Of a DNA stretch of 64,000 nt, positions 2,364 through 58,303 are shown one piece after another. Under the pieces are notes generated by a model. The model saw only the letters and a list, made by a program, of their open reading frames with translations, ran no database searches and was not told the origin of the DNA. The translations under genes were made by a program, and so were the position numbers. Every line of letters begins with the position of its first letter. The stretch's first letter is position 1. The DNA comes from Candidatus Limnocylindria bacterium (lineage in GTDB: Bacteria; Chloroflexota; Limnocylindria; QHBO01): NCBI GenBank assembly GCA_035697845.1, contig DASSCI010000039.1, positions 4,590-68,589 on the forward strand. The letters are read 5' to 3'.

Positions 2364-3356
2364 ATGAGCGAACGCGGCAGCGAGATCGTCGACCTCCCAC
2401 GCGACGTGCCGGCGCCCAACGCCGCCGCGTGGGCCGAGGCTCCGACGCCCGCGCCCGAAGCCCGGGCGCGTCGCCGATTCGGCGAGGGCGCCCAGATCGT
2501 GTGCGACAACCTCGTCAAGATCTACAAGGTCGCCGACCTCGAGGTCGTGGCGCTCCAGGGACTCGACCTGCTGGTGAACGCCGGCGAGATGATCGCCATC
2601 GTCGGCGCGTCTGGCTCCGGCAAGTCGACGCTGCTGAACATCCTCGGCGGGCTTGATGTGCCTTCCGCTGGACGCGCCGTTGTTGCGGGCCACGACCTGA
2701 CCCAGATGGGACGCCGCGAGCGGACTCGATACCGGCGCCGCACCATCGGCTTCGTCTGGCAGCAGACCGCCAAGAACCTGCTGCCGTACCTGTCGGCCGT
2801 CGAGAACGTGGAGATGCCGATGATCCTCAATGGCTCGGCCGACCGCGAGCGCGCCTTGGAGCTGCTGCGAACCGTGGGTCTTGCCGAGCGTGCGGATCAT
2901 CGGCCGGAGCGCCTCTCCGGAGGCGAGCAGCAACGGGTGGCTATCGCCGTCGCCTTGGCCAACTCGCCCGAGGTCCTCCTGGCCGATGAGCCGACGGGCG
3001 AGCTCGACACGGCGACCAGCGCCGAGATCTTCGACCTGATGCGCCACGTCAACGCCTCGCTGGGCACGACGGTCATCATCGTCACCCACGACCCGCTCGT
3101 GTCGGAGCAGGTGCAGCGCACGGTCGCCATCCGCGACGGCCGGACGTCGTCGGAGACGCTGCGCCGGGGCCGACTCTCGGACGAGGGCGAGCACGAGATG
3201 TTCGCCGAGGAGTTCGCGGTGCTGGACCGCGCAGGCCGCCTGCAGCTTCCACGTGCGCATGTCGAGGCGCTGGGCCTCGAAGGTCGCGTCCGCGTCCATC
3301 TCGAGGACGACCACATCGAGATCTGGCCGGACGCTCACACGGAGCCTGACCGATGA
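2364..3356 (+). CDS. ABC transporter ATP-binding protein with ~90-aa C-terminal extension
   Basis: Walker A GASGSGKST, ABC signature LSGGEQQRVAIA, Walker B LLADEPT. AGGTGG sits 8 nt upstream of the ATG at 2364 (track ORF begins at an in-frame GTG at 2352). Confidence 0.85.
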   Translation: MSERGSEIVDLPRDVPAPNAAAWAEAPTPAPEARARRRFGEGAQIVCDNLVKIYKVADLEVVALQGLDLLVNAGEMIAIVGASGSGKSTLLNILGGLDVPSAGRAVVAGHDLTQMGRRERTRYRRRTIGFVWQQTAKNLLPYLSAVENVEMPMILNGSADRERALELLRTVGLAERADHRPERLSGGEQQRVAIAVALANSPEVLLADEPTGELDTATSAEIFDLMRHVNASLGTTVIIVTHDPLVSEQVQRTVAIRDGRTSSETLRRGRLSDEGEHEMFAEEFAVLDRAGRLQLPRAHVEALGLEGRVRVHLEDDHIEIWPDAHTEPDR

Positions 3357-4075
3357 CCGCCACGGACCGATGGGCTCCAGGCCACGGCGCCATGGTCATC
3401 GCCGACGCGCTCGTGCGCGACTATCCCTCCGGCGACTCCGTCGTCCACGCCCTGCGCGGCGTTTCCTTCGAGGTTGCCCGCGGTGAGCTGATGGCCGTCA
3501 AGGGCCGATCCGGTTCCGGCAAGACGACGCTGCTCAACCTGCTGGGCGGGTTGGACAAGCCGACGTCGGGGCGCGTCGTCGTCGACGGGCGGGAGATGTC
3601 GAGCATGTCAGAGGCACAGCTCGTGGACGCACGCCGCAACACCGTCGCCTTCATCTTCCAGGCGTTCGGGTTGGTGCCCATCCTGTCCGCGGCAGAGAAC
3701 GTCGAGATCCCGCTGCGCCTGGTCCGGGCCAATCCAGCCGAGCGCGATGACCGGGTCATGGAGCTGCTGGAGCTCGTGGGCCTGGCGGAGCGGGCGAACC
3801 ATCGGCCCCATGAGCTCTCCGGCGGCGAGCAGCAGCGCGTGGCGATCGCCCGCTCGCTGGCGAACCGGCCCAAGCTGCTCCTGGCCGATGAGCCGACCGG
3901 CCAGCTCGACTCGACGACCGGCCACTCGATCATGGCCACGTTGCGGTCCGTGGTCCGGGCGGAGGGCGTCACCGCGGTCGTCGCCACACACGATCCGGCG
4001 CTGCTCGACCTGGCCGATCGCGTCCTCGAGATCCAGGACGGCCGCATCCGCGAGGCGGAGTCCGTCGCGTCCTGA
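3353..4075 (+). CDS. ABC transporter ATP-binding protein (second ATPase, probable heterodimer partner)
   Basis: Walker A GRSGSGKTT, signature LSGGEQQRVAIA, Walker B LLADEPT. ATGA overlap with the upstream stop. Confidence 0.85.
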   Translation: MTATDRWAPGHGAMVIADALVRDYPSGDSVVHALRGVSFEVARGELMAVKGRSGSGKTTLLNLLGGLDKPTSGRVVVDGREMSSMSEAQLVDARRNTVAFIFQAFGLVPILSAAENVEIPLRLVRANPAERDDRVMELLELVGLAERANHRPHELSGGEQQRVAIARSLANRPKLLLADEPTGQLDSTTGHSIMATLRSVVRAEGVTAVVATHDPALLDLADRVLEIQDGRIREAESVAS

Positions 4076-4121
4076 CTCCCCACGGTGCCCGTCGATCGGG
4101 CCGACCCGGACCCGGCCTGGA

Positions 4122-4712
4122 TCAGCCGACGTCCTCGAGCCAACCCTCGCGAAGCGCTCGAGCCGCGAGCTCCGTCCGCGACGCGACGCCGAACCGCTCG
4201 AACAGCCGGCGCAGGTGTGACTCGACGGTGCGCGAGCTGATGCCCAGCCGCGAGCCGATCTCGTCGTTCGAGGCGCCATCGACCACCAGCTGGAGCACTT
4301 CGCGCTCCCGGGCGGACAGCGCGACCCCGCCACCCGGCCGAACGCCGAAGGCGAGCCCGCCGGAGGCAGCGCGGCGGATTGCGTCCAGCAGCTCGGCGGT
4401 CGGAGCGGTCTTGACCACGAAACCGGCAGCGCCGAGGCGGAGGGCCGCATCGGCGTACTGGGGGTAGTCGTACGACGTCACGACGACCACGGCTGGCATG
4501 GCGACGTCGGATCGGAGCAGCTCGAATCCGGACTCCTGCCCGAGGCGGAGGTCCAGCAGCAGCACGTCGGTCGAGCCGGCCTCGAGGATCGGCCGCAGCT
4601 CGTCGAGCGAGCCGGCCACGCCGGCGATCTCCATGTCCTCCTGTCGGTCGACCAGCGCCGCAGTGCCCTCGCGGACCAGTGGATGGTCGTCGACCACCGC
4701 CACCCGGATCAC
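4122..4712 (-). CDS. Two-component response regulator, NarL/LuxR family
   Basis: N-terminal receiver domain (VIRVAVVDDH...LLLDLRL) and C-terminal LuxR HTH (REREVLQLVVDGASNDEIGSRLGISSRTVESHL). Start placed at the GTG (VIRV) 10 nt after the HK stop; the track ORF extends further upstream. Confidence 0.85.
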   Translation of the reverse strand: MIRVAVVDDHPLVREGTAALVDRQEDMEIAGVAGSLDELRPILEAGSTDVLLLDLRLGQESGFELLRSDVAMPAVVVVTSYDYPQYADAALRLGAAGFVVKTAPTAELLDAIRRAASGGLAFGVRPGGGVALSAREREVLQLVVDGASNDEIGSRLGISSRTVESHLRRLFERFGVASRTELAARALREGWLEDVG

Positions 4713-30423: not shown

Positions 30424-30588
30424 GCGGGCAGGATGCCATGGCGCTCCAACATCGAGCATTCGACGTAGCTCCGACTGGACCGATGCGGCGGTGTCGGCAC
30501 CGCCGCCTGCCGGATGGCGCACGGACCGCCGCGCCTGACGATGAGGGCGTCATCCATCCGCAATCCTCCCTCAGGAGCCGCCCGCACC

Positions 30589-31980
30589 ATGGACACCGCC
30601 GTTACCCTGCGCTTCGCCTCCCAGCCCGTCGACCTCTCCGCCCTTGGCCGCGCACTCCGCGGACGGATCATCGAGGCCGGCGATCCCTCGTTCGACGATG
30701 AACGCCAGGTGTGGAACCTCGCCCACTCCGCCCAGCCGCTGGCGATCGTCCGAGCCGCCGATGCCCGAGACGTTGCCACCGCAGTCGGGTTCGCTCGCCG
30801 CAACGGCATCGAGATCGCGGTCCGCAGCGGCGGCCACAGCCTTGCCGGCCATAGCACCGGCGACGGCGTGCTGGTCATCGACCTGCGCGACCTGCGTGGC
30901 CTGCACATCGACCCGGCCGCAGGGATGGCGTGGGCGGGCGCCGGCCTGACTGCTGGCGAGTACACGGCCGCCGTGGCTGAGCACGGTTTGGCGACGCCAT
31001 TCGGTGACACGGGCTCTGTCGGCCTGGGCGGCATCACCCTGGGCGGCGGCATCGGCTGGCTGGCGCGCAAGCATGGCCTGACGATCGACTCGCTGCTGTC
31101 CGTCGAGATGGTGCTCGCGTCCGGCCAGATCGTGACCGCTTCGGAATCGGAGAACGCTGACCTGTTCTGGGCCGTCCGGGGCGGCGGCGGCAACTTCGGG
31201 ATCGTCACCCGCTTCTGCTATCGGCTGCATCCCGTCGACCAGATCCTTGGTGGCGCGCTCGTCCTGCCACCCACGCGCGACGTGCTCCGCAGCCTGGTGC
31301 CGATCGCGGCCGCGGCTCCTGACGAGCTGACCACGATCGCCATGATCATGCCCGCGCCGGCGCATCCGGCGATGCCCGAGGAGCACCACGGCCGCTTGAG
31401 CCTGGTCCTCATGTTCGTCTACGCCGGGGACCCTGAGGCCGGTCGTGCCGCCATCGCGCCGTTCATGGCCGTCGCCGAGCCGTACGGGGTGCTGGCCTCG
31501 CCGATGCCGTATCCGGGCATCTACGAGCTGACGGCGGGCGGCGCAGCACGCCATGCCAGCACCACGCGTTCGGTCTTCATGAGGACGCTGGACGACGCGT
31601 CGGTCGATGCGATGATGGCGGCGATCGACGTGATCCCGGCGGGCTCGATGATCCAGCTGCGCGTGTTCGGTGGCGCGATGTCACGCGTCCCGGCGACCGC
31701 CACCGCGTTCGCTCACCGCGATGCGGCGGTCCAGGTCAGCGTCATGTCGGCGTTCGTGGATGAGGCATCTGCCCCCGCGGCGGTCGCCTGGAACCGCGGC
31801 CTGTTCGCCGCACTGGAGCCGAAATCCACCGGCGTCTACGCGAACTTCCTCGAAGACGAAGGCGACGCGCGCATCAGAGCCGCCTATCCCGCCGGCGCTT
31901 ACGAGCGCCTGGCCGAGATCAAGCGCCGATACGACCCGGCCAACGTGTTCCATCGCAACCAGAACATCGCGCCGCGCTGA
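30589..31980 (+). CDS. FAD-linked oxidase (PCMH-type FAD-binding, BBE/vanillyl-alcohol-oxidase-like)
   Basis: FAD-binding segment RSGGHSLAGHSTGDGVLVIDL...GAGLTAGEY...GSVGLGGITLGGGIGWLARKHGL and an ADLFWAVRGGGGNFGIVT motif. Confidence 0.8.
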   Translation: MDTAVTLRFASQPVDLSALGRALRGRIIEAGDPSFDDERQVWNLAHSAQPLAIVRAADARDVATAVGFARRNGIEIAVRSGGHSLAGHSTGDGVLVIDLRDLRGLHIDPAAGMAWAGAGLTAGEYTAAVAEHGLATPFGDTGSVGLGGITLGGGIGWLARKHGLTIDSLLSVEMVLASGQIVTASESENADLFWAVRGGGGNFGIVTRFCYRLHPVDQILGGALVLPPTRDVLRSLVPIAAAAPDELTTIAMIMPAPAHPAMPEEHHGRLSLVLMFVYAGDPEAGRAAIAPFMAVAEPYGVLASPMPYPGIYELTAGGAARHASTTRSVFMRTLDDASVDAMMAAIDVIPAGSMIQLRVFGGAMSRVPATATAFAHRDAAVQVSVMSAFVDEASAPAAVAWNRGLFAALEPKSTGVYANFLEDEGDARIRAAYPAGAYERLAEIKRRYDPANVFHRNQNIAPR

Positions 31981-31999: not shown

Positions 32000-32026
32000 A
32001 ACGGCCCGGCGATGTGCCGGGCCGTT
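32000..32026. terminator. Putative bidirectional rho-independent-like hairpin (11-bp GC-rich stem, 5-nt loop)
   Basis: AACGGCCCGGC-gatgt-GCCGGGCCGTT is a perfect inverted repeat. It lies between the FAD oxidase stop and the tRNA-Gly 3' end. There is no U-tract. Confidence 0.4.
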
Positions 32027-32040
32027 CGTGCGTGATCAAG

Positions 32041-32116
32041 TGGAGCGGGAAACGGGTCTCGAACCCGCGACCTTCTGCTTGGGAAGCAGACGCTCTGCCA
32101 ACTGAGCTATTCCCGC
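32041..32116 (-). tRNA. tRNA-Gly (anticodon CCC)
   Basis: Reverse complement GCGGGAATAGCTCAGTTGGCAGAGCGTCTGCTTCCCAAGCAGAAGGTCGCGGGTTCGAGACCCGTTTCCCGCTCCA. Cloverleaf with anticodon loop UUCCCAA, very similar to known tRNA-Gly. Confidence 0.9.
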
Positions 32117-32237
32117 GCCAGCCGATCGTAGCGGACGAGCGCGCCCTCAGTCCATCGGCCCAGTGGATTTGCGCATGGACATGCCAGACGCCGGGGGGTA
32201 GGTCCCGGCGTCGGCTGGTCGCTGTCGAGTGGAAGGC

Positions 32238-32510
32238 CTAGCGGATCAGGGTCACCCCACCGCCCTGGGCATGGCTCGGGGAGGCTGCGACGGTTCCGAC
32301 GGTGCCGGCGGCGACGGCCGCCATCAGGGCCACGCCAGCCAGGCCGGCCGCCAGCCGCCGAGCTGTCAGTGAGCGGAACGCGTCGCGATTGAACGGTCGC
32401 GCATGCTCGTGGCGGTCCTTCTGGACCATGCGGATGCGGGCCGCGTGATCGAGTCGCTCGCCGTACGTCTGCTTGGCCAGGTGATAGCTGGTGGTGTTCG
32501 GTCCGAGCAT
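32238..32510 (-). CDS. Hypothetical small protein with C-terminal TM
   Basis: Only ORF evidence; weak. Confidence 0.2.
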   Translation of the reverse strand: MLGPNTTSYHLAKQTYGERLDHAARIRMVQKDRHEHARPFNRDAFRSLTARRLAAGLAGVALMAAVAAGTVGTVAASPSHAQGGGVTLIR

Positions 32511-32623
32511 TGAAGTGTCTCCTTCGAGCTGGAGTGGTTGGCTCGTCGTCGTTGGAGGAATGCTCGCCCCGAGCGGGCCGAATCGGTGATCAACGGGCCG
32601 ACAGGAGGCCGGTCAACCTGCCG

Positions 32624-33424
32624 ATGCGCTCCCTGTCGGCCCAGCCGCGCATGCGCTGTCGTACGCGCGACACCTTGACGCCGAGCGCGCTGACGGGGGA
32701 GAGTGTCCGCGCGTACGAGGGTGCCTGCGTGCTCGACCATTCCGTCGCGATCGACCTGCTGCGCCGATGCGCGCTCTTCGCGCACGCGTCGGACGACGGC
32801 CTTCGTGCGCTGGCTGGCCAGATGCGGCGCCGCCGGTATCGGCGCAACGAGGTGATCTTCCACCAGGGAGACATCGGCGATTCCTTCCACGTGGTTGCTG
32901 CCGGCGCGGTCAAGATCGTGCTCCCGTCGGCCGAGGGCGACGAGGCAATCATCGCCAGCCTCAAGCCGGGCGACTTCTTCGGCGAGCTGGCGCTGCTCGA
33001 CAGCTCACCGCGCTCGACGACCGCGACGGCCATCGAGGTGACGGAGACGCTGACGCTTCCCCGTGAGCACTTCCTGCACCTCCTCCAGGACGATCCGGAG
33101 CTCGTCCGCGCCCTGCTGCGAGCGCTGGCCGAGGAGCTGCGCCGCCTCACGGGGCACGTGGAGGAGCTGCACTTCCTGGATCTCGCAGGGCGGTTGTCGA
33201 TGCGCCTGGTCCGCCTTGCCCGCGACGCCAACCCCGACGCCACCGGCCGCTGCGAGCTCGACTGGCCGTTCACCCAGTCTGACCTGGCTGCAATGATCGG
33301 CGGGACGCGCCAGAGCGTGAACAAGCTGCTCAGCGGCCTCGTCGAGGATGGGCTGATCAGCATCGAGCGCGACACCCTCGTCATCAACGACGTGCTCCAG
33401 CTCGAGCGTCATGGAAGCCGATGA
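32624..33424 (+). CDS. Crp/Fnr family transcriptional regulator (cNMP-binding + HTH)
   Basis: cNMP-binding motif (GDFFGELALLDSSPRSTTATA) and C-terminal HTH (QSDLAAMIGGTRQSVNKLLSGL). The start is uncertain; the track ORF begins at 32510. Confidence 0.8.
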   Translation: MRSLSAQPRMRCRTRDTLTPSALTGESVRAYEGACVLDHSVAIDLLRRCALFAHASDDGLRALAGQMRRRRYRRNEVIFHQGDIGDSFHVVAAGAVKIVLPSAEGDEAIIASLKPGDFFGELALLDSSPRSTTATAIEVTETLTLPREHFLHLLQDDPELVRALLRALAEELRRLTGHVEELHFLDLAGRLSMRLVRLARDANPDATGRCELDWPFTQSDLAAMIGGTRQSVNKLLSGLVEDGLISIERDTLVINDVLQLERHGSR

Positions 33425-33528
33425 GTGTCGCGCAGGCGACAGCCAGAGTGTCGGATCAGTGCTTCGGCGAGCGCACCGGGCACCGTAGGATCAGCCACAT
33501 TGCGGTCGATGCTGCCAGCTAGGAGGCA

Positions 33529-33921
33529 ATGAACGATATGGACAGATTCCGGCGGCGACCGCCGATGGAAGGGTTCTCGCGCCCGGGTTCGCTGGGCGGC
33601 GAGGCATACGATGACGACTCAGTGGAGGGTCACATGATGGACGACGATCGCACCCAGGACATCGACACCGAGGGCCACGCCTTCGTCCGCCGCGCGGATG
33701 AGAGCGACGACACCGAGGGTCACGCGTTCACCCGTCGCGCGGACGACAGCGACGATACCGAGGGCCACGCCTTCACCCGCCGAGCGGATGATGACGAGGA
33801 CACCGAGGGCCACGCGTTCACGCGTCGAGCCGACGACGAGGACGACACGGAAGGTCACGCCGGCTGGCTGAAGGCCACCGACGAGGACGACACAGAGGGC
33901 CACGTCTCCAAGATCAAGTAG
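33529..33921 (+). CDS. Small acidic tandem-repeat protein: six copies of a ~15-aa unit D-[DE]-x-D-T-E-G-H-A-F-[TV]-R-R-A-D
   Basis: Protein is MNDMDRFRRRPP...DTEGHAFVRRADESDDTEGHAFTRRADDSDDTEGHAFTRRADDDEDTEGHAFTRRADDEDDTEGHAGWLKATDEDDTEGHVSKIK. The 45-bp DNA repeats differ at synonymous positions. AGGAGG RBS upstream; the start may be ATG 33529 or 33538. Confidence 0.6.
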   Translation: MNDMDRFRRRPPMEGFSRPGSLGGEAYDDDSVEGHMMDDDRTQDIDTEGHAFVRRADESDDTEGHAFTRRADDSDDTEGHAFTRRADDDEDTEGHAFTRRADDEDDTEGHAGWLKATDEDDTEGHVSKIK

Positions 33922-33931
33922 CCACCCGCGC

Positions 33932-34711
33932 GTGGCACAAGATCCCCCAGTGGATGCCGCGATCGCCGCGCTTGTCGCGGCATCGCGGCGTTCCGCCGTT
34001 GGACGACGGCTGCAGGGCGACGTCGAGACCCGTCTCCTCCAGAGCATCGTCGACGCGACCGTGCGACTGTTCGATGCCGAGGCGGCCTCGATTGCGCTTT
34101 TCGAGCCGGATCCGGACCGGCTCGAGTTTCGTGTTGCCGCCGGCGAGCAGGGCGCGGGAGCGATCGGCCTGTCCGTTCCTCCCACCCAGGGCATCGTCGG
34201 CTTCGTCTACTCGACCGGCCAGGCGCTCGCTCTCTCCGACGTCGCCAACGATCCGCGCTTCAACCGGGATGCGGCGGAGCAGACGGGCTACGTGCCTCGC
34301 TCGATCGCCGCGGCCCCGCTGCTCGACGAGAACGGGACGCAGGGCGTCCTGCAGGTGCTCGACAAGCACTCGTCGGCGACCTTCTCACTGCGCGACATGG
34401 AGCTGCTGGCCGTCTTCGCGCGACAGGCGACCGTTGCCATCGCCGCCACCCGGGTCCAGCGCGACACCGCCCGTCTCCTGCGCGGCGTGCTGGCCGATCT
34501 CGCTCCGGACCTGACGGACGAGCAGGCCGAGGCCGCCGTATCGGCGGCGACGCAGGGGCTCGACGCAGAGGACGAGCCCTTCTGGAGTCTGGTCGACCAG
34601 ATCGCCCGACTTCGCGGGCTCAGCGACCGCGAGACGAGCCTGGTCTCGGCCATCCTGGAAACCGTGGCGGCTCACGCGGAGCGAACGCAGCGCGGCCGCA
34701 TCGGTCGATGA
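33932..34711 (+). CDS. GAF domain-containing protein
   Basis: GAF-like core (GIVGFVYSTGQALALSDVANDPRF...SIAAAPLLDENGTQGVLQVLDK). GTG start. Confidence 0.75.
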   Translation: MAQDPPVDAAIAALVAASRRSAVGRRLQGDVETRLLQSIVDATVRLFDAEAASIALFEPDPDRLEFRVAAGEQGAGAIGLSVPPTQGIVGFVYSTGQALALSDVANDPRFNRDAAEQTGYVPRSIAAAPLLDENGTQGVLQVLDKHSSATFSLRDMELLAVFARQATVAIAATRVQRDTARLLRGVLADLAPDLTDEQAEAAVSAATQGLDAEDEPFWSLVDQIARLRGLSDRETSLVSAILETVAAHAERTQRGRIGR

Positions 34712-35556
34712 CGTCGTCCGAGCTCCCGGCCTGGTCCGAGCCGTTCACCAACCGCCGGCGCGAGCTTCGCCGACGCCTCCGGGTCAAGGGCGTCACGCGT
34801 GATTGGGCCTGGGGCGGGGCGACCGGGGCCGGCGTCCGGGTTGGCATCATCGACTCGGGGCTCGAGAACGCACATCCGAGGCTCCGCGGACGCGTCGCCG
34901 AGAACGTCACGGTCGAGATGACCGATGACGGTCCAAGGGTCGTGCCGGACGACCCGATCGACATGTTCGGACATGGCACTGCGTGCGGCGACATCATCCT
35001 CTCGCTCGCTCCCGACGTGGAGCTCGTCAGCATCCGGGTCCTTGGCGCCGACCTGCGCGGCAAGGGAACCGCCTTCGCCGCCGGGCTGGAGTGGGCCCTC
35101 GAGCATGACATCCAGGTCTGCAACCTGAGCCTGTCGTCGAAGAGCGAGTCGCTGTACCCGGTCTTCCACGACCTGGCCGATCGCGCCTACTTCCAGTCGA
35201 TGGCGCTCATCAGCGCCGCCAACAACGTGCCGGCGCCGAGCTATCCGTCCCTGTTCAGCTCGGTCTTCTCGGTGGCCGCTCACGCCGAGCCGGACCCGTG
35301 GCGCATCTACTACAACCCGGCGCCTCCGGTCGAGTTCGGCGCGTGGGGCGTGGACGTGCCGATCGCCTGGAAGGACGGCGGCTCCACGGTGGCCACTGGC
35401 AACAGCTTCGCCGCGCCGCACGTGGCGGGGCTGGTGGCGCTGATCCTCTCGAAGCACCCGGGCCTGAGCCCGTTCGAGGTGAAGGCCATCCTGGCCAGCG
35501 TGGCCGACAACCCCGGACGGCGACATCCGTGGCGTCGGCGCGTGTCCGCTCCGTGA
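34708..35556 (+). CDS. S8 family (subtilisin-like) serine peptidase, no signal peptide (cytoplasmic)
   Basis: Catalytic triad motifs VGIIDSG (Asp), HGTACGD (His) and GNSFAAPHVAG (Ser). ATGA overlap with the GAF gene. Confidence 0.8.
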   Translation: MTSSELPAWSEPFTNRRRELRRRLRVKGVTRDWAWGGATGAGVRVGIIDSGLENAHPRLRGRVAENVTVEMTDDGPRVVPDDPIDMFGHGTACGDIILSLAPDVELVSIRVLGADLRGKGTAFAAGLEWALEHDIQVCNLSLSSKSESLYPVFHDLADRAYFQSMALISAANNVPAPSYPSLFSSVFSVAAHAEPDPWRIYYNPAPPVEFGAWGVDVPIAWKDGGSTVATGNSFAAPHVAGLVALILSKHPGLSPFEVKAILASVADNPGRRHPWRRRVSAP

Positions 35557-37169
35557 GCCTGCTTCGGACCTACCTCGACCTCTTCCGCCGCAACGGTGCG
35601 CTCTCGCGCCTGCTGGCAGGCGAGTTCGTGTCGGGCATCGGCGACTGGCTGTATCTCGTGGCGGTCCTCGTCGTCGTCTACGCCGACAGCAACTCGCCGG
35701 TGCTCCTCGGCATCGTGGGCGCCGCGCGGATCCTGCCGTACGTGCTGCTGTCCGTTCCGGCCGGCATCGTCGCCGACCGCTTCGACCGGCGGATGGTCCT
35801 GTTGGTGACCGACGTCGCCCGCGGCGTCCTGATGCTCGTGCTGGTCGGTGCGGTGATGGTCGATGCTCCGACCCTCGTGATCGTGGCGGTGTCCATCCTG
35901 GCGGCCTGCTTCTCGACCTTCTTCGGCCCGGCCATCGCTGCGCTGGTGCCGACGATCGTCGATGAGCGCGACCTCGGAATCGCCAACAGCGCGTGGGCCA
36001 CGCTCGACAACGTCGCCTTCATCGTGGGGCCCGCGCTCGCGGGGCTCCTGCTCGCCGGCGGAGGGCTGGAGATCGCCTTCCTGCTCAACGCCGTCTCGTT
36101 CGCCGTCGTGGCCGTCGTGCTCTGGCAGCTGCCGATTCCACGCACGGCCGACGTGGTGGTGAGCCCCGAGGACGAGCAGCCGGCATCGGCCTCCTGGCGC
36201 GATCTCGTTCGGCCCCTGGCGGGCCCCTTCATCCTCGACTCGACCACCAGCATCGTCGGAGGCGGCCTGGGCGTGCTGACGGTCGTCATCGCCATCGACG
36301 TGCTGGGCGCGGGCGATGCCGGGACCGGCTACCTGAATGCCGCCATCGGCGTCGGCGGAGTCGTGGCGGGCATCGCCGGAGGTGCGCTCCTCGCACGCAG
36401 GCTGAGCGTGCCGCTCCTGCTGGGCGGCCTCGCCGGAGGTGTCGGCCTCGCGTGGCTCGCGCTGACCGGTGATCTCCTGACCGCCATGCTCGCCATCGGC
36501 GTCGCCGTGGCCGGGCTGCTGCTCCTCGACGTGGTCAACACCACGCTCATCCAGCGCATCGTTCCCGATGCGCTCCGCGGACGCGCCGTGGGCGCGATGC
36601 AGACCAGCTCATCGGTCCTGTATGCCGCCGGCTCGCTGGTCATGCCGCTGCTGGCGGACGCGCTGGGCGTGCCCGTGGTGCTGATCGGCGCAGCGGTCAT
36701 CATGGCCGCCGGCGCAATCCTGGCCCTGGTGCTCAGCGGGAGCCAGGAGGAACCCGCGGCCGTCGATGCCTCGCGCATCCGGTTGCTGGAGCGGCCGATC
36801 TTCGCCGGGCTTCCGCCAGCTCGCATCGAGGCAGCCGCACGAGGACTGGTCCCCGTGCCGGTTGATGCGGGCGAGGCCGTCGTTCGCCAGGGCGAGGCGG
36901 CCGACCGCTTCTACGTGATCGATTCCGGAGAGCTGCGCGTCACGCAGGTCAGCGACGGTGACGTCCATTTCCTGCGTGATCTCGGCCCGGGCGACGTCTT
37001 CGGCGAGATCGGCCTGCTGCGAGGAGTGCCCCGCACGGCGACCGTCACGGCCAGCACTCCCGCCGTGCTCTACGCCCTCGACGCCGCGGCCTTCGGTGAG
37101 CTGGTTGGCTCCGGGCCTGGATTGAGCTCGCGGCTGCTCGATCTGTACCGGGGCGCGCTCAGCCGTTGA
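35553..37169 (+). CDS. MFS transporter fused to a C-terminal cyclic-nucleotide-binding domain
   Basis: ~12 TM helices followed by a cNMP-binding domain (FYVIDSGELRV...GPGDVFGEIGLLRGVPRTATVTA). GTGA overlap with the S8 peptidase stop. Confidence 0.75.
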   Translation: MSLLRTYLDLFRRNGALSRLLAGEFVSGIGDWLYLVAVLVVVYADSNSPVLLGIVGAARILPYVLLSVPAGIVADRFDRRMVLLVTDVARGVLMLVLVGAVMVDAPTLVIVAVSILAACFSTFFGPAIAALVPTIVDERDLGIANSAWATLDNVAFIVGPALAGLLLAGGGLEIAFLLNAVSFAVVAVVLWQLPIPRTADVVVSPEDEQPASASWRDLVRPLAGPFILDSTTSIVGGGLGVLTVVIAIDVLGAGDAGTGYLNAAIGVGGVVAGIAGGALLARRLSVPLLLGGLAGGVGLAWLALTGDLLTAMLAIGVAVAGLLLLDVVNTTLIQRIVPDALRGRAVGAMQTSSSVLYAAGSLVMPLLADALGVPVVLIGAAVIMAAGAILALVLSGSQEEPAAVDASRIRLLERPIFAGLPPARIEAAARGLVPVPVDAGEAVVRQGEAADRFYVIDSGELRVTQVSDGDVHFLRDLGPGDVFGEIGLLRGVPRTATVTASTPAVLYALDAAAFGELVGSGPGLSSRLLDLYRGALSR

Positions 37170-37181
37170 TCCTCGCGCACG

Positions 37182-38102
37182 TCAGGCGGCGAGGTCACCG
37201 GTGAGCATGCGCCGATAGGAGTCGTAGCGCGCCTCGCTCACCGCGCCGGCCTCCACCGCTGCCCGCAGCCCGCAGCGCGGCTCATGCAGGTGGCTGCAGT
37301 CGTTGAAGGCGCAGTTTCCCAGGTGCTCGCGAAACTCGGGGAAGCACCAGGCCAGCTCGCTGGGCGGGATCTCCCACAGGCCGAGCTCACGAATGCCCGG
37401 CGTGTCGGCGACGTACCCACCACCCGCGAGCGCATGCAGCTCCGCGTGGGTGGTGGTGTGCTTGCCCTTGCCGGCGAGCACCTGCGAGACCTCGCCGGTC
37501 GCCAGCTGCAGGCCGGGTTGGATGGCATTCAGGAGCGTCGACTTGCCCACGCCGGACGGCCCGGTGACGATCGACAGCTTGCCGGCCAGCCGCGCGCGCA
37601 GCTCCTCGACGCCCATGCCCGTCTTCGCCGACGCGTAGACGACCTCGTAGCCGATCTGTGCATAGCCGCCGAACAGCCGCTGCGCCTCCGCCTCGCCGAC
37701 GAGGTCGACCTTGTTGGCCACGAGCAGCACGGGCACCTCGTTGTATTCCGTCACCACCAGGAACCGATCCACGAGCCGCGGATTGGGCGGCGGTCGATCG
37801 CACGCGAACACGACGGCCACCAGGTCCGGATTGGCGACCATCACGTCCTCGCGCCACGACCCGCGCGGCCCGGGCTGCCGGCGGCTGAACCGCCGCTCTC
37901 GAGGCTCGACGGCGTCGATGGCGCCGGTCCCATCCGCCAGGCGCTCGACGCTCACGCGGTCGCCGATGACCGCGAGGTCGGACGCCTGGCGCTCCTTCTT
38001 GACCCGGCCGCGCAGGCGCGCCTCCACGAGGTCACCTTCGTCGGTCAGCACGGTGTAGAAGCCGGATCGGGCTCGCAGGACGACCCCGCGGGTGCGGCTC
38101 AT
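37182..38102 (-). CDS. rsgA: Ribosome small-subunit-dependent GTPase A
   Basis: Circularly permuted GTPase motifs (NKVDL...GPSGVGKSTLLN...DTPG) and a C-terminal zinc-binding Cys cluster (CAFNDCSHLHEPRC). Start at MSRTRGVV. Confidence 0.85.
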   Translation of the reverse strand: MSRTRGVVLRARSGFYTVLTDEGDLVEARLRGRVKKERQASDLAVIGDRVSVERLADGTGAIDAVEPRERRFSRRQPGPRGSWREDVMVANPDLVAVVFACDRPPPNPRLVDRFLVVTEYNEVPVLLVANKVDLVGEAEAQRLFGGYAQIGYEVVYASAKTGMGVEELRARLAGKLSIVTGPSGVGKSTLLNAIQPGLQLATGEVSQVLAGKGKHTTTHAELHALAGGGYVADTPGIRELGLWEIPPSELAWCFPEFREHLGNCAFNDCSHLHEPRCGLRAAVEAGAVSEARYDSYRRMLTGDLAA

Positions 38103-38965
38103 CCGAGCGCGCCCACCGCCATGCCGTAGAGCGTCTCCTCGCGCTTCGGCACATCCGCGCCGCGTGCCATCCGTCCGTCCCAGCCGACCGTCTCGACCCC
38201 CAGTCCTCGGAGCCATCTGGCTCCGATCTCGTTGCCCGGTGGCAGATTCAGCCGCAGCCGCTCGACGTCGGGCGCTTGGTCGAACGCCGAAGCCAGGAGG
38301 GTCTCGGCAACGGTCGGTGCGTCGGCCAGGAACGGACCGATGCGGCCGCCGTCGGCACGCACGCACGCGTATCCGGCCAGTTCGTTTGCAGTCGCCGCGG
38401 CGAGCACGGTCGCGCCGGCATCGGCCAGGAGGAGCTCCAGGATTCGCCGTCGATCGCCACCGAAGCGCGGCCGATCGTAGGAGCAGAGTGCCTCGAGGTC
38501 AGCGATGGCCGCGACGCGTACGTCCAGGGATGGGTCGGCCGTGAGAGATAGGCCCCGTGGAATCTCGGCCGTGGCGCTGGTACCCGTGCTGTGGAAGCCG
38601 TGGCGTTCGTAGAGCGGCCGCCCCTCGCTCGTGGCGTTGAGCTCGAGCCGGACGCAACCGGCGGCCTCGAGGAAGCCGATGACGCCGTTCAGGATCGCCG
38701 AGCCCAGGCCTCGCCGCTGCACGTCCGGCGCGACGACCATGTTCCCGACGAAGCCGAGTGGCCCATAGGCGATGCCCGAGCCCACGGCGATGAGCTGGGC
38801 GTTGCCATCGGCGGCGACGAGGCATCGAGCGGACGGTTCGCCGATCACGGCGCGGAGCGCCCATTCGTGGACGCCCCAGCCAACCGACTCGCGCAGGGCC
38901 GCGATCGCGGGCAGGTCCTCGCTCGTCGCGTCGCGCAGGGTCACCCCGTCGGGCAGGCGGCTCAT
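38099..38965 (-). CDS. GNAT acetyltransferase with C-terminal accessory domain (YitH-like two-domain)
   Basis: N-terminal GNAT motif (VQRRGLGSAILNGVIGFLEAAG). Confidence 0.65.
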   Translation of the reverse strand: MSRLPDGVTLRDATSEDLPAIAALRESVGWGVHEWALRAVIGEPSARCLVAADGNAQLIAVGSGIAYGPLGFVGNMVVAPDVQRRGLGSAILNGVIGFLEAAGCVRLELNATSEGRPLYERHGFHSTGTSATAEIPRGLSLTADPSLDVRVAAIADLEALCSYDRPRFGGDRRRILELLLADAGATVLAAATANELAGYACVRADGGRIGPFLADAPTVAETLLASAFDQAPDVERLRLNLPPGNEIGARWLRGLGVETVGWDGRMARGADVPKREETLYGMAVGALG

Positions 38966-46334: not shown

Positions 46335-47446
46335 GCGTTCGCAACGTCGGTGCGGCCGAGGCGGTCGCGCTCGCGCGGGCCGGCTATCGGGTCATCGACG
46401 TGCGCGAGCCGGTCGAATGGGATGCCGGTCACATCGCCGATGCGACGCTGCTGCCGCTCGGCGACGTCGTCGAGCGCATCAACCGGGTGGCCCCCGATCG
46501 CGACGCTCCACTGCTGCTGCATTGCAGTGCCGGTGCTCGCTCGGCGCGCGCTGCCGGGTGGCTGGTCGACCTCGGCTACACGAACGTCGCCAACCTTGAC
46601 GGCTCGATCGACGGCTGGCGTGAGCAGGGTGGGGCCTGGGTGGAGCCGACGACCTCGTTGACGGACGCCCAACGGCGTCGATACGCCCGTCAGCTCGTCC
46701 TGCCCGAGGTCGGCCCGGAGGGTCAGCGGCAGCTGCTCGAGGCCCGCGTGCTGGTCGTGGGTGCGGGAGGGCTCGGCTCGCCCGTGGCCCTGTACCTGGC
46801 GGCGTCCGGCGTGGGCACCCTCGGGATCGTCGACGACGACGTGGTCGACGAGTCGAACCTCCAGCGGCAGGTCGTGCACGCCGCGGAACGGCTCGGAATG
46901 CGCAAGGTCGCCTCGGCAGCGGTGGCGGTGCGTGCGCTCAACCCCGAGACGAACGTGGTCGAGCACGACGCGCGCCTGAGCGCCGCCAACGTCGCCGATG
47001 TCATCGCCGGCTACGACCTCGTGGTCGACGGCACCGACAACCTCGACACCCGCTACCTGCTCAACGATGCTGCCGTCGCCACCGGCACGCCGGTGGTGCA
47101 CGGATCGGTATACCGATGGGATGGCCAGGTCACGACGCTCGTCCCGTTCGAGGGGCCCTGCTACCGATGCCTCCACCCGGTCCGGCCGCCCGACGATCTC
47201 GTGCTCGACTGCGACGTTGCGGGCGTGCTGGGCGTGCTGCCCGGCATCGTCGGCACCATCCAGGCTGCTGAGGCGCTGAAGCTCCTGCTTGGCGTGGGCG
47301 AGCCACTGGTCGGCCGGATGCTCATCTACGACGCGCTCGGGGCCCGATTTGACGAGATCGCCATCCCGCGCGACCCGGCGTGCGTGACCTGCGGGTCGGC
47401 CGCGGCTCCCTGGAGGCATCCGGCCATCGCGCCCGCCTCGGCGTGA
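46331..47446 (+). CDS. Rhodanese-ThiF/MoeB fusion (E1-like sulfur-carrier adenylyltransferase/sulfurtransferase; rhodanese domain N-terminal)
   Basis: Rhodanese with active Cys (LLLHCSAGARSA) followed by ThiF motif (VLVVGAGGLGSP) and a CxxC...CxxC zinc site. GTGA overlap with sufU. Confidence 0.8.
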   Translation: MSVRNVGAAEAVALARAGYRVIDVREPVEWDAGHIADATLLPLGDVVERINRVAPDRDAPLLLHCSAGARSARAAGWLVDLGYTNVANLDGSIDGWREQGGAWVEPTTSLTDAQRRRYARQLVLPEVGPEGQRQLLEARVLVVGAGGLGSPVALYLAASGVGTLGIVDDDVVDESNLQRQVVHAAERLGMRKVASAAVAVRALNPETNVVEHDARLSAANVADVIAGYDLVVDGTDNLDTRYLLNDAAVATGTPVVHGSVYRWDGQVTTLVPFEGPCYRCLHPVRPPDDLVLDCDVAGVLGVLPGIVGTIQAAEALKLLLGVGEPLVGRMLIYDALGARFDEIAIPRDPACVTCGSAAAPWRHPAIAPASA

Positions 47447-57058: not shown

Positions 57059-58303
57059 ATGTCGACCGATCCGGCGGAAGGCCGGCTCATCGTCCTGCGC
57101 CATCCCGACCTGCGTCGCTACCTGACGGCTCGCTTCATCGCGTCCATCGCCACCCAGGTCCAGACCGTCGCCGTCGGCTGGCAGGTCTTCCGGGCCACGG
57201 GCGACCCCTTCGACCTGGGCCTGGTGGCGCTATCGCAGTTCCTGCCCTTCGTGCTGCTCATCCTGCCGGCCGGACATGTCGCCGACCGATACGATCGGCG
57301 CCGCATCCAGCTCGTGACGTACGTGCTGCTGGCGGCCTGCGCCGCGGCGCTGTTCGGTCTCGCGCTGTCCGGAAACATCGATACCGGGCCCGTCTTCGCC
57401 GTGATGGTGCTGTTCGGCACCGCGCGCGCCTTCAATCACCCCGTCGGCCAGGCGCTCCTGCCGAACCTGGCCCCGATCACGCTGTTTCCTCGCGCCGTTG
57501 CCGTCAACTCGTCGCTCGGTCAGGTCGCCACCATCGCGGGGCCGGCGATCGGCGGCGCGCTGGTCCTGTTCGGAGAGCAGGTGGCGTTCGGGCTCTCGCT
57601 CGTGCTGCTGGTGGCCGCGGTGGTGCTGGTCGCAGGGCTGCGCGGAGGTGGTCGCACCGAAGCCTCGACCGAACCGGTGTCGTGGGCGGCATTGCTCACG
57701 GGCGTCAACTTCGTGCGCAGCCGTCCGATCGTGCTTGGCTCGATCTCGCTCGACCTGTTCGCGGTCCTGTTCGGCGGGGCGGAGGCGCTGCTGCCCATTT
57801 ATGCCGGTGAGATCCTCGATGTTGGACCGGTCGGCCTGGGCATCATGCGGGCCGCTCCGGCGGTCGGTGCCGGCGTCCTCGCGGCAGTCGTGGCTGTGCG
57901 CCCCATCCGGCGCAACGTGGGCAGATGGATGTTCGGCGGCGTCATCGTGTTCGGGATCGCCACCATGCTCTTCGGCGTGTCGACCAGCTTCCCACTGAGC
58001 GTGGCGGCGCTGGTCGTGATGGGGGCCGGCGACATGGTCAGCGTGTACATCCGCCACCTGCTCGTGCAGCTCGAGACGCCCGATGCGATCCGGGGTCGCG
58101 TGAGCGCGGTCAACTCGGTGTTCATCGGCGCATCCAACGAGCTCGGTGAGTTCGAGTCGGGCATCACCGCGTCGTGGTGGGGGATCGTCCCGGCCGTTGT
58201 CGTCGGCGGAGCGGCGACGCTCGCGGTCGCCGCGACCTGGACTCGCGTCTTCCCGGTTCTGCGACGCCTCGACCGTTTCCCCGAGCCTGAGGACGTGCCC
58301 TAG
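57059..58303 (+). CDS. MFS transporter (EntS/MFS_3-like)
   Basis: 12 TM and a DRYDRRR loop motif. Confidence 0.8.
   Translation: MSTDPAEGRLIVLRHPDLRRYLTARFIASIATQVQTVAVGWQVFRATGDPFDLGLVALSQFLPFVLLILPAGHVADRYDRRRIQLVTYVLLAACAAALFGLALSGNIDTGPVFAVMVLFGTARAFNHPVGQALLPNLAPITLFPRAVAVNSSLGQVATIAGPAIGGALVLFGEQVAFGLSLVLLVAAVVLVAGLRGGGRTEASTEPVSWAALLTGVNFVRSRPIVLGSISLDLFAVLFGGAEALLPIYAGEILDVGPVGLGIMRAAPAVGAGVLAAVVAVRPIRRNVGRWMFGGVIVFGIATMLFGVSTSFPLSVAALVVMGAGDMVSVYIRHLLVQLETPDAIRGRVSAVNSVFIGASNELGEFESGITASWWGIVPAVVVGGAATLAVAATWTRVFPVLRRLDRFPEPEDVP

Follow-up and report, generated by a model that had tools for sequence, protein, structure and literature searches.

A common fusion of an MFS transporter to a cyclic-nucleotide-binding domain lies in a conserved, cross-phylum gene module with a subtilisin-like protease and a repeat peptide

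The 64,000-nt stretch of a Candidatus Limnocylindria contig analysed here (the window) encodes a permease of the major facilitator superfamily (MFS) that continues, after its last transmembrane (TM) helix, into a cyclic-nucleotide-binding domain (CNBD). The fusion itself is already known and common; what is new is the conserved module around it, in which the MFS-CNBD gene is accompanied by genes for a Crp-type regulator, a repeat peptide (REP), a GAF-domain protein and an S8 subtilisin-like protease. This cross-phylum module, which includes an operator and a repeat-peptide family and in which the exporter can be exchanged without loss of the CNBD, appears to be undescribed in the literature searched, where no description of the module or of its motif strings was found (weak negative evidence). 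An earlier note on this DNA had pointed to the Crp-type regulator and the GAF protein as neighbours of the fusion, and Pfam confirms both (the regulator combines cNMP_binding with HTH_Crp_2); the S8 protease, the peptide with its [VT]EGH motif, the operator and the conservation across phyla are the more informative context. We read the module, tentatively and with slightly less than even confidence, as one controlled by cyclic AMP (cAMP) and Crp, in which a multi-repeat precursor would be cleaved in the cytoplasm and exported through a cAMP-gated exporter.

Linkage was counted in 46 species-level loci with adequate flanks, with a distance limit of 7 kb from the fusion. The S8 protease and the GAF protein are both present in 45 of them, a full-length Crp in 41 and an open reading frame (ORF) with [VT]EGH repeats in 40. 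Three gene orders occur, with the S8 gene upstream (18 loci), downstream on the same strand (14) or downstream and convergent (13); the linkage thus survives rearrangement, which argues for function. Distant fusions, only 35-39% identical, have the same partners in all four loci examined, namely, two soil-metagenome contigs (L083 and L084), Geodermatophilus sp. SYSU D00766 (L085) and a metagenome-assembled genome (MAG) of Gaiellaceae (L086). Identity to the window proteins is 48-57% for S8 and 42-49% for GAF, and the module spans Chloroflexota and Actinomycetota, cultured Geodermatophilus included. Viewed from the protease side, a metagenome scan yielded 589 S8 relatives, and a reciprocal test was made on 11 S8 loci with at least 3.5 kb on both sides. 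The GAF partner is found in 11/11 of these and the MFS-CNBD fusion in 7/11, the four others being more distant loci without an MFS match. At one locus (L150), the gene before Crp-GAF-S8 encodes a protein of 1042 amino acids (aa) with ABC_membrane (5e-44), ABC_tran (1e-38) and a C-terminal cNMP_binding domain (8e-25), and the cassette of this ABC-CNBD protein, GEVALLYDVPRTATI, shares the PRTAT type with the cassettes of the MFS fusions. The occurrence of two unrelated CNBD-fused exporter families in the same module is the strongest indication that the role of the transporter is export and that control of the exporter by a cyclic nucleoside monophosphate (cNMP) is the selected feature.

In the window, the genes for Crp, REP, GAF, S8 and MFS-CNBD follow one another in this order on the forward strand, with four-base start/stop overlaps between GAF and S8 (ATGA) and between S8 and MFS-CNBD (GTGA), indicating a translationally coupled operon. 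The longest crp ORF begins at 32510, yet homologues are 231 aa long; the best NCBIfam match of the protein is CRP, below cutoff. The features of the module are as follows.

32657-32672 (no strand): operator-like palindrome TGTCGTACGCGCGACA (TGTC-N8-GACA), 57 nt upstream of the crp start in the divergent intergenic region
32729-33424 (+): Crp/Fnr-family regulator, 231 aa from GTG 32729; cNMP_binding 1.5e-26, HTH_Crp_2 3.8e-14
33426-33441 (no strand): operator-like palindrome TGTCGCGCAGGCGACA (TGTCG-N6-CGACA), just after the crp stop, ahead of the REP operon
33486-33491 (+): TAGGAT, a -10-like hexamer in a conserved block between operator and REP start (19-locus alignment)
33529-33921 (+): repeat-peptide gene REP, 130 aa; conserved N-terminal region and 7 repeats; AGGAGG ribosome-binding site at 33520-33525
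33932-34711 (+): GAF-domain protein, 259 aa; GAF 7e-19
34708-35556 (+): S8 subtilisin-like protease, predicted to be cytoplasmic, 282 aa; Peptidase_S8 at residues 40-268; start overlaps the GAF stop
35553-37169 (+): MFS-CNBD fusion, 538 aa; last cistron, start overlaps the S8 stop
35607-36755 (+): MFS permease domain, residues 19-401; 12 TM helices, motif A, TM1 G30-D31-W32
36768-37166 (+): cytoplasmic CNBD, residues 406-538, ~10 residues after TM12
36999-37046 (+): phosphate-binding cassette F483-G-E485-I-G-L-L-R-G-V-P-R494-T-A-T-V498, from the alignment with protein kinase A (PKA) FGELALIYGTPRAATV

The fusion is a real single gene. Its ORF comprises 538 codons with no internal stop, and its GTG start, which overlaps the TGA stop of the S8 gene as GTGA, is supported by homologues of 538-545 aa that open with MSLxRTY. 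The frameshift or missed stop that the earlier note had named as a possible flaw is excluded by this continuous ORF and by the same single-ORF layout in 120/120 closest homologues and in 95 complete diverse proteins. The architecture which that note had proposed, an MFS permease with a C-terminal CNBD, holds in the Pfam domain scan, in an AlphaFold2 model and in Foldseek comparisons. Pfam places MFS_1 at residues 21-353 (5.8e-39, 134.4 bits, gathering cutoff 33.4), MFS_3 at 19-401 (4.5e-28, 98.4 bits, cutoff 27) and cNMP_binding at 436-518 (2.9e-22, 78.9 bits, cutoff 27.5); the two strings quoted earlier as signs of the cNMP-binding fold, FYVIDSGELRV and GEIGLLRGVPRTATV, correspond to residues 453-463 and 484-498. 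The AlphaFold2 model, built on 32 homologues (mean predicted local distance difference test score, pLDDT, 78.7; predicted template-modelling score, pTM, 0.70), has six TM helices at 15-192 and six at 216-396, separated by a central loop (193-215), then helices at 406-430 and a beta-roll at 433-510, and the hydropathy peaks agree with it on the 6+6 TM helices.

In a PDB sequence search, the closest match of the CNBD is PKA RIalpha (1e-28), and solved bacterial cAMP receptors, namely, Mtb CRP, Pat and MloK1 (the last at 1e-12), also match; Foldseek aligns the C-terminal part with the CNB domains of PKA and PKG at target-normalised TM-scores of 0.7-0.85. The segment FGEIGLLRGVPRTATV pairs with PKA FGELALIYGTPRAATV, F483-G484-E485 ... 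R494-T495-A496 being aligned with GELAL..PRAA of RIalpha, and both the cassette Glu (E485) and Arg (R494) are kept. Furthermore, F483, G484, E485, R494, T495 and A496 are invariant in 32 homologues (73-92% identity), and only eleven columns are invariant among 49 fusions at 30-57% identity, five of which are F483, G484, E485, R494 and A496. Such invariance in diverse fusions is a signature of selection for ligand binding, and with the Glu and the Arg conserved, binding is likely to be retained. A PF00027 score above the gathering threshold, the modelled strands at 433-510 and the intact Gly-Glu and Arg of the cassette place the domain among CNBDs, and its conserved residues make it likely to bind a cNMP. 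The earlier note had proposed to read from the cassette Arg and Glu whether the ligand is cAMP or cGMP or whether binding has been lost: both residues are present and invariant, as expected if binding is kept, but the 'RTA' sequence cannot separate cAMP from cGMP. Since the Thr after the cassette Arg is non-discriminating, cAMP is predicted mainly from context, and we consider it the probable ligand. With somewhat less assurance, the fusion itself, the conserved cassette and the recurrence of CNBDs on two exporter families suggest that the domain regulates transport.

The membrane part is an MFS permease by its profile scores above the gathering cutoffs, its 12 TM helices in two six-helix bundles and its motif A. 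This motif, G71-IVA-D75-R76-F-D78-R79-R80, lies in the loop between TM2 and TM3, and D75, R76, D78 and R79 are invariant in two homologue alignments of the fusion. TM1 carries a conserved G30-D31-W32, with Asp31 invariant or nearly so, and the Arg-rich N-terminus, read directly from the sequence, fits an inside location. The best solved match of the membrane part in Foldseek is NorA (target-normalised TM-score up to 0.87). The best NCBIfam matches of the transporter, all below cutoff, are TIGR00900 'H+ antiporter' (148.2 vs 319.6 bits), EntS (NF007792; 74.1 vs 324 bits), Tap, Mef proteins and 'ryptide export MFS transporter'; because the cutoffs of TIGR00900 and EntS are missed, the transporter resembles these exporters and cannot be filed as a member of either family. 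It appears to be of the DHA3/MFS_3 exporter type, for which transport would be outward. A second MFS-like stretch lies elsewhere in the window, at 57098-57544 (+); in tblastn (4e-09), it matches the N-terminal half of the transporter at 34% identity.

Fusions of this kind are widespread. The best 120 matches among 5.8 billion proteins, annotated 'MFS transporter' and derived from Candidatus Limnocylindria and other Chloroflexota MAGs, all carry PF05977+PF00027+PF07690 (120/120). A HMMER search over 1.84 billion 50%-identity representatives returned 867 matches at E<=1e-30; among the best 150 of these, both domains are present in 114, and 95 are complete proteins of 500-700 aa with a single CNBD after the MFS part, down to ~32% identity. 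When one genome per GTDB species was scanned, a relative turned up in at least 399 of them. The nearest, 98% identical, is in the Limnocylindria MAG DASTTX010000011.1, and cultured Geodermatophilus spp. and Jatrophihabitans fulvus are among the members of a distant branch; some relatives carry the JGI label 'CRP-like cAMP-binding protein/predicted MFS family arabinose efflux permease'. Moreover, MFS transporters fused to CNBDs had already been catalogued, according to a 2023 review (PMC10710835, citing Willson et al. 2019), and the same catalogue of MFS C-terminal domains is cited in a Chem Rev MFS review. The number of 50%-identity clusters and species genomes, together with this prior catalogue, mark the architecture as known and frequent, so that the view of the fusion as uncommon, taken in the earlier note, is not borne out. 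No characterised MFS-CNBD fusion was found in the literature searched, and the 2023 review states that none of the UspA-MFS fusions has been characterised (PMC10710835). Fusion genes 52-80% identical to the Limnocylindria one also occur on contigs labelled Steroidobacteraceae, Anaerolineaceae or Methylomirabilota (L004, L008, L058, L061, L066 and L068), which are probably mis-binned or mislabelled MAG contigs rather than cases of horizontal transfer.

The regulatory region of the module is conserved as well. The 16-bp palindrome at 33426, which has a 5-6-5 layout like that of CRP operators, is at least 90% conserved in an alignment of the crp-REP intergenic region from 19 loci. The pattern TGTC-N8-GACA has 2 matches in the window against 0.5 expected and 116 over all loci against 8 expected (14-fold), and, of 68 loci with repeats, 55 (including those of Actinomycetota) have it at a distance of 0-600 nt upstream of the repeats. 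In Geodermatophilus, each of three repeat ORFs has its own copy of the palindrome. Where the transporter is separated from REP, the operator lies within 300 nt of the transporter start in only 5/49 loci. Judged by position and conservation only, Crp is the presumed ligand of the palindrome, and the TAGGAT hexamer is a candidate promoter element. A promoter/terminator scan of 32000-38500 returned no promoter-like sites and no more terminator-like sites than expected by chance. Class III cyclases are neighbours of the module in the two soil-metagenome contigs and in Geodermatophilus (L083, L084 and L085) and are present as response-regulator cyclases in L163 and L166. The L083 cyclase reads GGTVEKFVGD where the Cya2 guanylyl cyclase (2w01) has GGTIDEFMGD and the bacteriophytochrome-adenylate cyclase chimera 6fht, which we take to be a Glu-to-Lys variant of Cya2, has GGTIDKFMGD; with Lys at the purine-specifying position, ATP would be favoured as the substrate and cAMP as the product.

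The S8 protein aligns with mature subtilisin BPN' from its residue 37, leaving no room for a signal peptide or a pro-domain, and residues D49, H89, S233 and N173 are invariant. Its best NCBIfam matches, both below cutoff, are QhpE (NF049966; 1.6e-32; 112.6 vs 165 bits) and mycosin. Among solved structures, the first relative of the GAF protein is the GAF domain of a HD-GYP phosphohydrolase (4mcw), followed by the cNMP-binding GAFs of Anabaena CyaB2, PDE2, PDE5 and PDE10.

REP consists of seven copies of an acidic run followed by [VT]-E-G-H with a 15-aa period, corresponding to a 45-bp tandem repeat in the DNA, and it is the sole ORF of the window with at least two matches to the motif. It has no Pfam or NCBIfam match, and its 178 database relatives are all 'hypothetical' and without a Pfam domain. 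Taken together as a profile, 274 motif instances found in 65 ORFs give D-D-D-D-[V 50%/T 47%]-E 91%-G 99%-H, followed by a small residue and then basic residues. The motifs are spaced 12-39 aa apart with variable spacers, a median of 7 residues follows the last His, and the repeat regions contain 19% Asp, 10% Glu and 6.5% His and no Cys. The N-terminal ~25 residues (MDxFRRRPPMEGFSRPGSLGGE; 33529-33600) are conserved among the closest loci and resemble a leader or recognition region. A short putative precursor gene with conserved motifs and variable segments adjoins a protease and an exporter, as in processed-peptide clusters. In the distant loci, a small ORF of L083 has EDDVAGHV with a 44-aa period, L084 has DEDDDV[QE]GH with a period of 27 aa, and the Gaiellaceae locus has the variant DEDVEAH. 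Geodermatophilus encodes a 235-aa protein with ~14 DD[TV]EGH repeats, which starts within the stop codon of the transporter gene, and ORFs of 97 aa and 33 aa that also bear the motif. The repeat protein of L163 comprises ~12 AEPEVEGH units in which the acidic run is replaced; since these units retain [VT]EGH without that run, [VT]EGH is the universal core. In a second class of ORFs with the motif, a longer conserved tail (e.g. ...EGHMIGAMNPLLARELVR or ...EGHAISLRFPTREEADAF), and not just a few residues, comes after the last [VT]EGH; this class occurs in L027, L028, L052, L057, L064, L065, L071, L074, L075, L078 and L081. In L007, the region matching the REP N-terminus is apparently out of frame with the called gene.

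Several related loci carry further genes. L163 encodes a fusion of a CNBD to a SpoIIE (PP2C) phosphatase (3147-4400) with the cassette Arg changed to His. In L166 (5090-10717), genes for a HAMP histidine kinase and a response-regulator adenylate/guanylate cyclase come after that for a 716-aa family-5 (peptide-type) solute-binding protein; these extra genes are possibly an extracellular-peptide sensing branch. In Geodermatophilus (L085, 3492-6279), a 33-codon ORF (MSHAEDDVTGHGRGNPDDD...) with one motif and its own upstream palindrome directly precedes a TldD/PmbA pair, after which come Crp and MFS-CNBD; the TldD/PmbA peptidase pair could be a second processing route in this strain. In the Gaiellaceae locus (L086, 3808-5072), a standalone 141-aa CNBD protein, an extracytoplasmic function (ECF) sigma factor and an ORF matching Pfam 'Frankia_peptide', a Nif11/LigA-like family of predicted precursors of ribosomally synthesized and post-translationally modified peptides (RiPPs), precede S8-GAF, and an Opp-type peptide ABC importer lies 3 kb downstream of the transporter. 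The Frankia_peptide ORF was considered as evidence for a RiPP and was not used, being apparently a leader-type domain without an obvious core.

In the cAMP/Crp-controlled module that we propose, cAMP-Crp would turn the operon on, and the S8 protease, without signal or pro-domain and possibly under the control of its GAF partner, would cleave the precursor in the cytoplasm at or near the acidic-[VT]EGH sites. The cleavage products would exit via the proton-coupled MFS exporter, whose rocker-switch cycle cAMP on the fused CNBD would permit or block, so that synthesis and export would answer to one second messenger. That the cargo of the transporter derives from the repeat peptide is plausible, and we suggest it with clear reserve. 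As a broader and rather unlikely extension, the module may form a cAMP-wired peptide signalling circuit, not recognised before, in Chloroflexota and Actinomycetota of soil: a GAF-controlled subtilase would cut the [VT]EGH precursor, the products would be released via the cAMP-gated MFS-CNBD or ABC-CNBD and, in some genomes, the family-5 protein and the histidine kinase would sense these peptides outside the cell and signal to the response-regulator adenylate cyclase, closing a positive feedback through cAMP-Crp and TGTC-N8-GACA.

Several observations weigh against cleavage and cAMP-gated export of the precursor. One fully flanked locus holds the fusion without S8 or GAF, and an exporter was not identified within the available sequence of L163 and L166. 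On the peptide side, Pfam finds no tailoring or modification enzyme in the operon of the window, where only GAF and S8 are present besides the other module genes, highly acidic 15-mers would be an unusual cargo for an MFS transporter, and REP may not be a RiPP-like precursor at all. On the signalling side, the 'RTA' of the cassette is as compatible with cGMP as with cAMP, a tblastn search with the L083 cyclase found no cyclase in the window, and a cyclase is nearby in only 3/46 Limnocylindria loci. An E. coli-type CRP site, TGTGA-N6-TCACA, is absent near the operon, the window holding one 9/10 match to it, at 46418, and the final 20 residues of the fusion model have pLDDT <50.

Some of these points suit a different role for the peptide, which we regard as unlikely: REP could be an intracellular, acidic and His-rich protein, for example a metal buffer or a regulatory decoy, that is turned over by GAF-S8, and the MFS-CNBD protein would move, under cAMP control, some unrelated small solute (a metabolite or a metal chelate, for instance). 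The Asp-, Glu- and His-rich, Cys-free composition of the repeat regions and the absence of a modifying enzyme from the cluster are consistent with this, as is the fact that characterised MFS_3/DHA3 relatives move mostly small molecules (enterobactin, macrolides). However, the spacers vary greatly and only [VT]EGH is fixed, a pattern that suits recognition or cleavage better than metal binding. Moreover, the transporter and repeat genes overlap directly in Geodermatophilus, and the substitution of an ABC_membrane-type exporter points to an exported product specific to the module.

The same exporter swap, in which the MFS and ABC proteins share a CNBD with the PRTAT cassette, could also be explained if the transported molecule were cAMP itself. 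The CNBD would then sense cytoplasmic cAMP and open a path for its export, setting the level for the neighbouring Crp, which is indeed linked in 41/46 loci, with class III cyclases in several. We consider such a cAMP efflux pump quite improbable, as it leaves unexplained the near-obligate linkage to S8, GAF and the repeat peptide and the translational coupling, and cyclases are seldom adjacent in the Limnocylindria loci (3/46). Still less probable is a generic multidrug or metabolite efflux pump with a regulatory CNBD and functionally unrelated neighbours: although the transporter has weak similarity to the Tap, Mef and TetA(P) efflux pumps, MFS-CNBD fusions are numerous and one locus lacks the partner genes, the linkage in 45/46 loci holds over three gene orders and two phyla and is accompanied by start/stop overlaps, and from the protease side the fusion recurs in 7/11 loci and an ABC-CNBD protein in one. 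It is very improbable that the protein is a non-transporting 'transceptor', like yeast Rgt2/Snf3, in which the MFS body would bind an external ligand, perhaps a peptide, and signal via the CNBD. MFS-derived sensors do exist (PMC12740885 and PMC10876965), and some related loci encode a peptide-type solute-binding protein and sensor kinases, but the fusion keeps the transport signatures (motif A D75, R76, D78 and R79; TM1 Asp31), CNBDs are ligand receivers for which no output activity of their own is known, and the ABC substitute is a full ATPase exporter. Finally, the reading of the fusion as an assembly or sequencing artefact joining two separate genes, for which no supporting point was found, is refuted by the continuous reading frame, by identical architecture in hundreds of independent assemblies and cultured genomes, and by the linker residues R408, F417 and G419, conserved in 32 homologues.

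The proposed cAMP/Crp-controlled export module can be compared with several known systems. The catalogue of Willson, Dalzell, Chapman & Thomas 2019 (Microbiology 165:419, via PMC10710835 and PMC8154325) contains the same 12-TM MFS with a C-terminal CNBD, proposed to be a 'plug-on' allosteric regulator; the literature searched makes no mention of the gene-neighbourhood module. As in the MloK1, CNG and HCN channels, the CNBD directly follows the last TM helix, and in these channels binding by the cassette Glu and Arg is relayed to the membrane domain. By contrast, the membrane domain of the fusion is a monomeric rocker-switch carrier instead of a tetrameric pore and there is no C-linker, so that the coupling geometry must differ. 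The NCBIfam family TIGR03896 'cyc_nuc_ocin', a CNBD protein defined by its genomic association with bacteriocin-type peptide export, offers a genomic precedent for cNMP control of peptide export. The CNBD of the fusion matches this family at 8.6e-07, but with 28.6 bits against a cutoff of 161, and TIGR03896 proteins are separate soluble proteins beside ABC exporters and are not fused to an MFS transporter.

Multi-core precursors cut by S8 proteases are exemplified by cyanobactin PatE with PatA/PatG, and repeat precursors are processed by Kex2 in fungi. REP shares with these precursors the repeats in which short recognition sequences flank variable segments, together with a subtilisin-family protease, and the PatA site G-[LV]-E-[AP]-S is similar to [VT]-E-G-H in that its Glu comes after a hydrophobic residue and before a small one. 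Unlike cyanobactin clusters, the module is without a heterocyclase, macrocyclase domain, DUF or tailoring enzyme, and the S8 protein matches the PatA/PatG family at E=0.011 only. Given the lack of a tailoring enzyme and this negligible match, the module should not be classified as a RiPP cluster. In NCBIfam, the S8 protein of the module comes closest to QhpE, which belongs to the quinohemoprotein amine dehydrogenase system. QhpE is a small S8 protease of the cytoplasm and trims a peptide that is then moved by a dedicated exporter. The S8 protein of the module, however, scores lower than the equivalog cutoff, its presumed substrate is unrelated to that of QhpE, and there are no qhp genes in the vicinity. 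Two proteins of M. tuberculosis, Rv3728 and Rv3239c, reportedly carry cNMP-binding domains; they are presumably much larger, with an additional esterase-like domain, and we know of no S8, GAF or repeat context for them. Both are listed as MFS efflux pumps (PMC6300501, PMC3816664).

Downstream, the operon of the window is met by a convergent RsgA GTPase gene at 37182-38366 (-), which lies outside the module. The RsgA-like ORF is listed at 394 aa, homologues being ~300-313 aa, and its Arg-rich N-terminal extension is probably not translated. Directly upstream of the module, a tRNA-Gly(CCC) gene at 32041-32116 (-) lies between a FAD-oxidase-like ORF (30514-31980) and a small ORF at 32238-32510 (-) that is divergent from crp. 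The latter encodes 90 aa with a C-terminal hydrophobic segment, shares the intergenic region that contains the palindrome at 32657, and is matched in L001 and L002 by equally placed ORFs that are 36-44% identical to it; this ORF may be part of the regulon of the module.

Post-translational control of bacterial transporters by fused sensors is widely predicted and has never been demonstrated for MFS-CNBD fusions. The family described here is a well-defined test case, combining a conserved binding site, a candidate cargo next door, a matching Crp and operator, and cultured hosts (Geodermatophilus). The presence of a CNBD on two unrelated exporter families in one module would exemplify selection for gating and not for a particular transporter. 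If the cAMP/Crp-controlled module operates as proposed, the commonest bacterial second messenger would be tied directly to peptide secretion. In Limnocylindria, to our knowledge a dominant uncultured lineage of soil and freshwater whose physiology is almost wholly undescribed, this would define a new and abundant peptide family.

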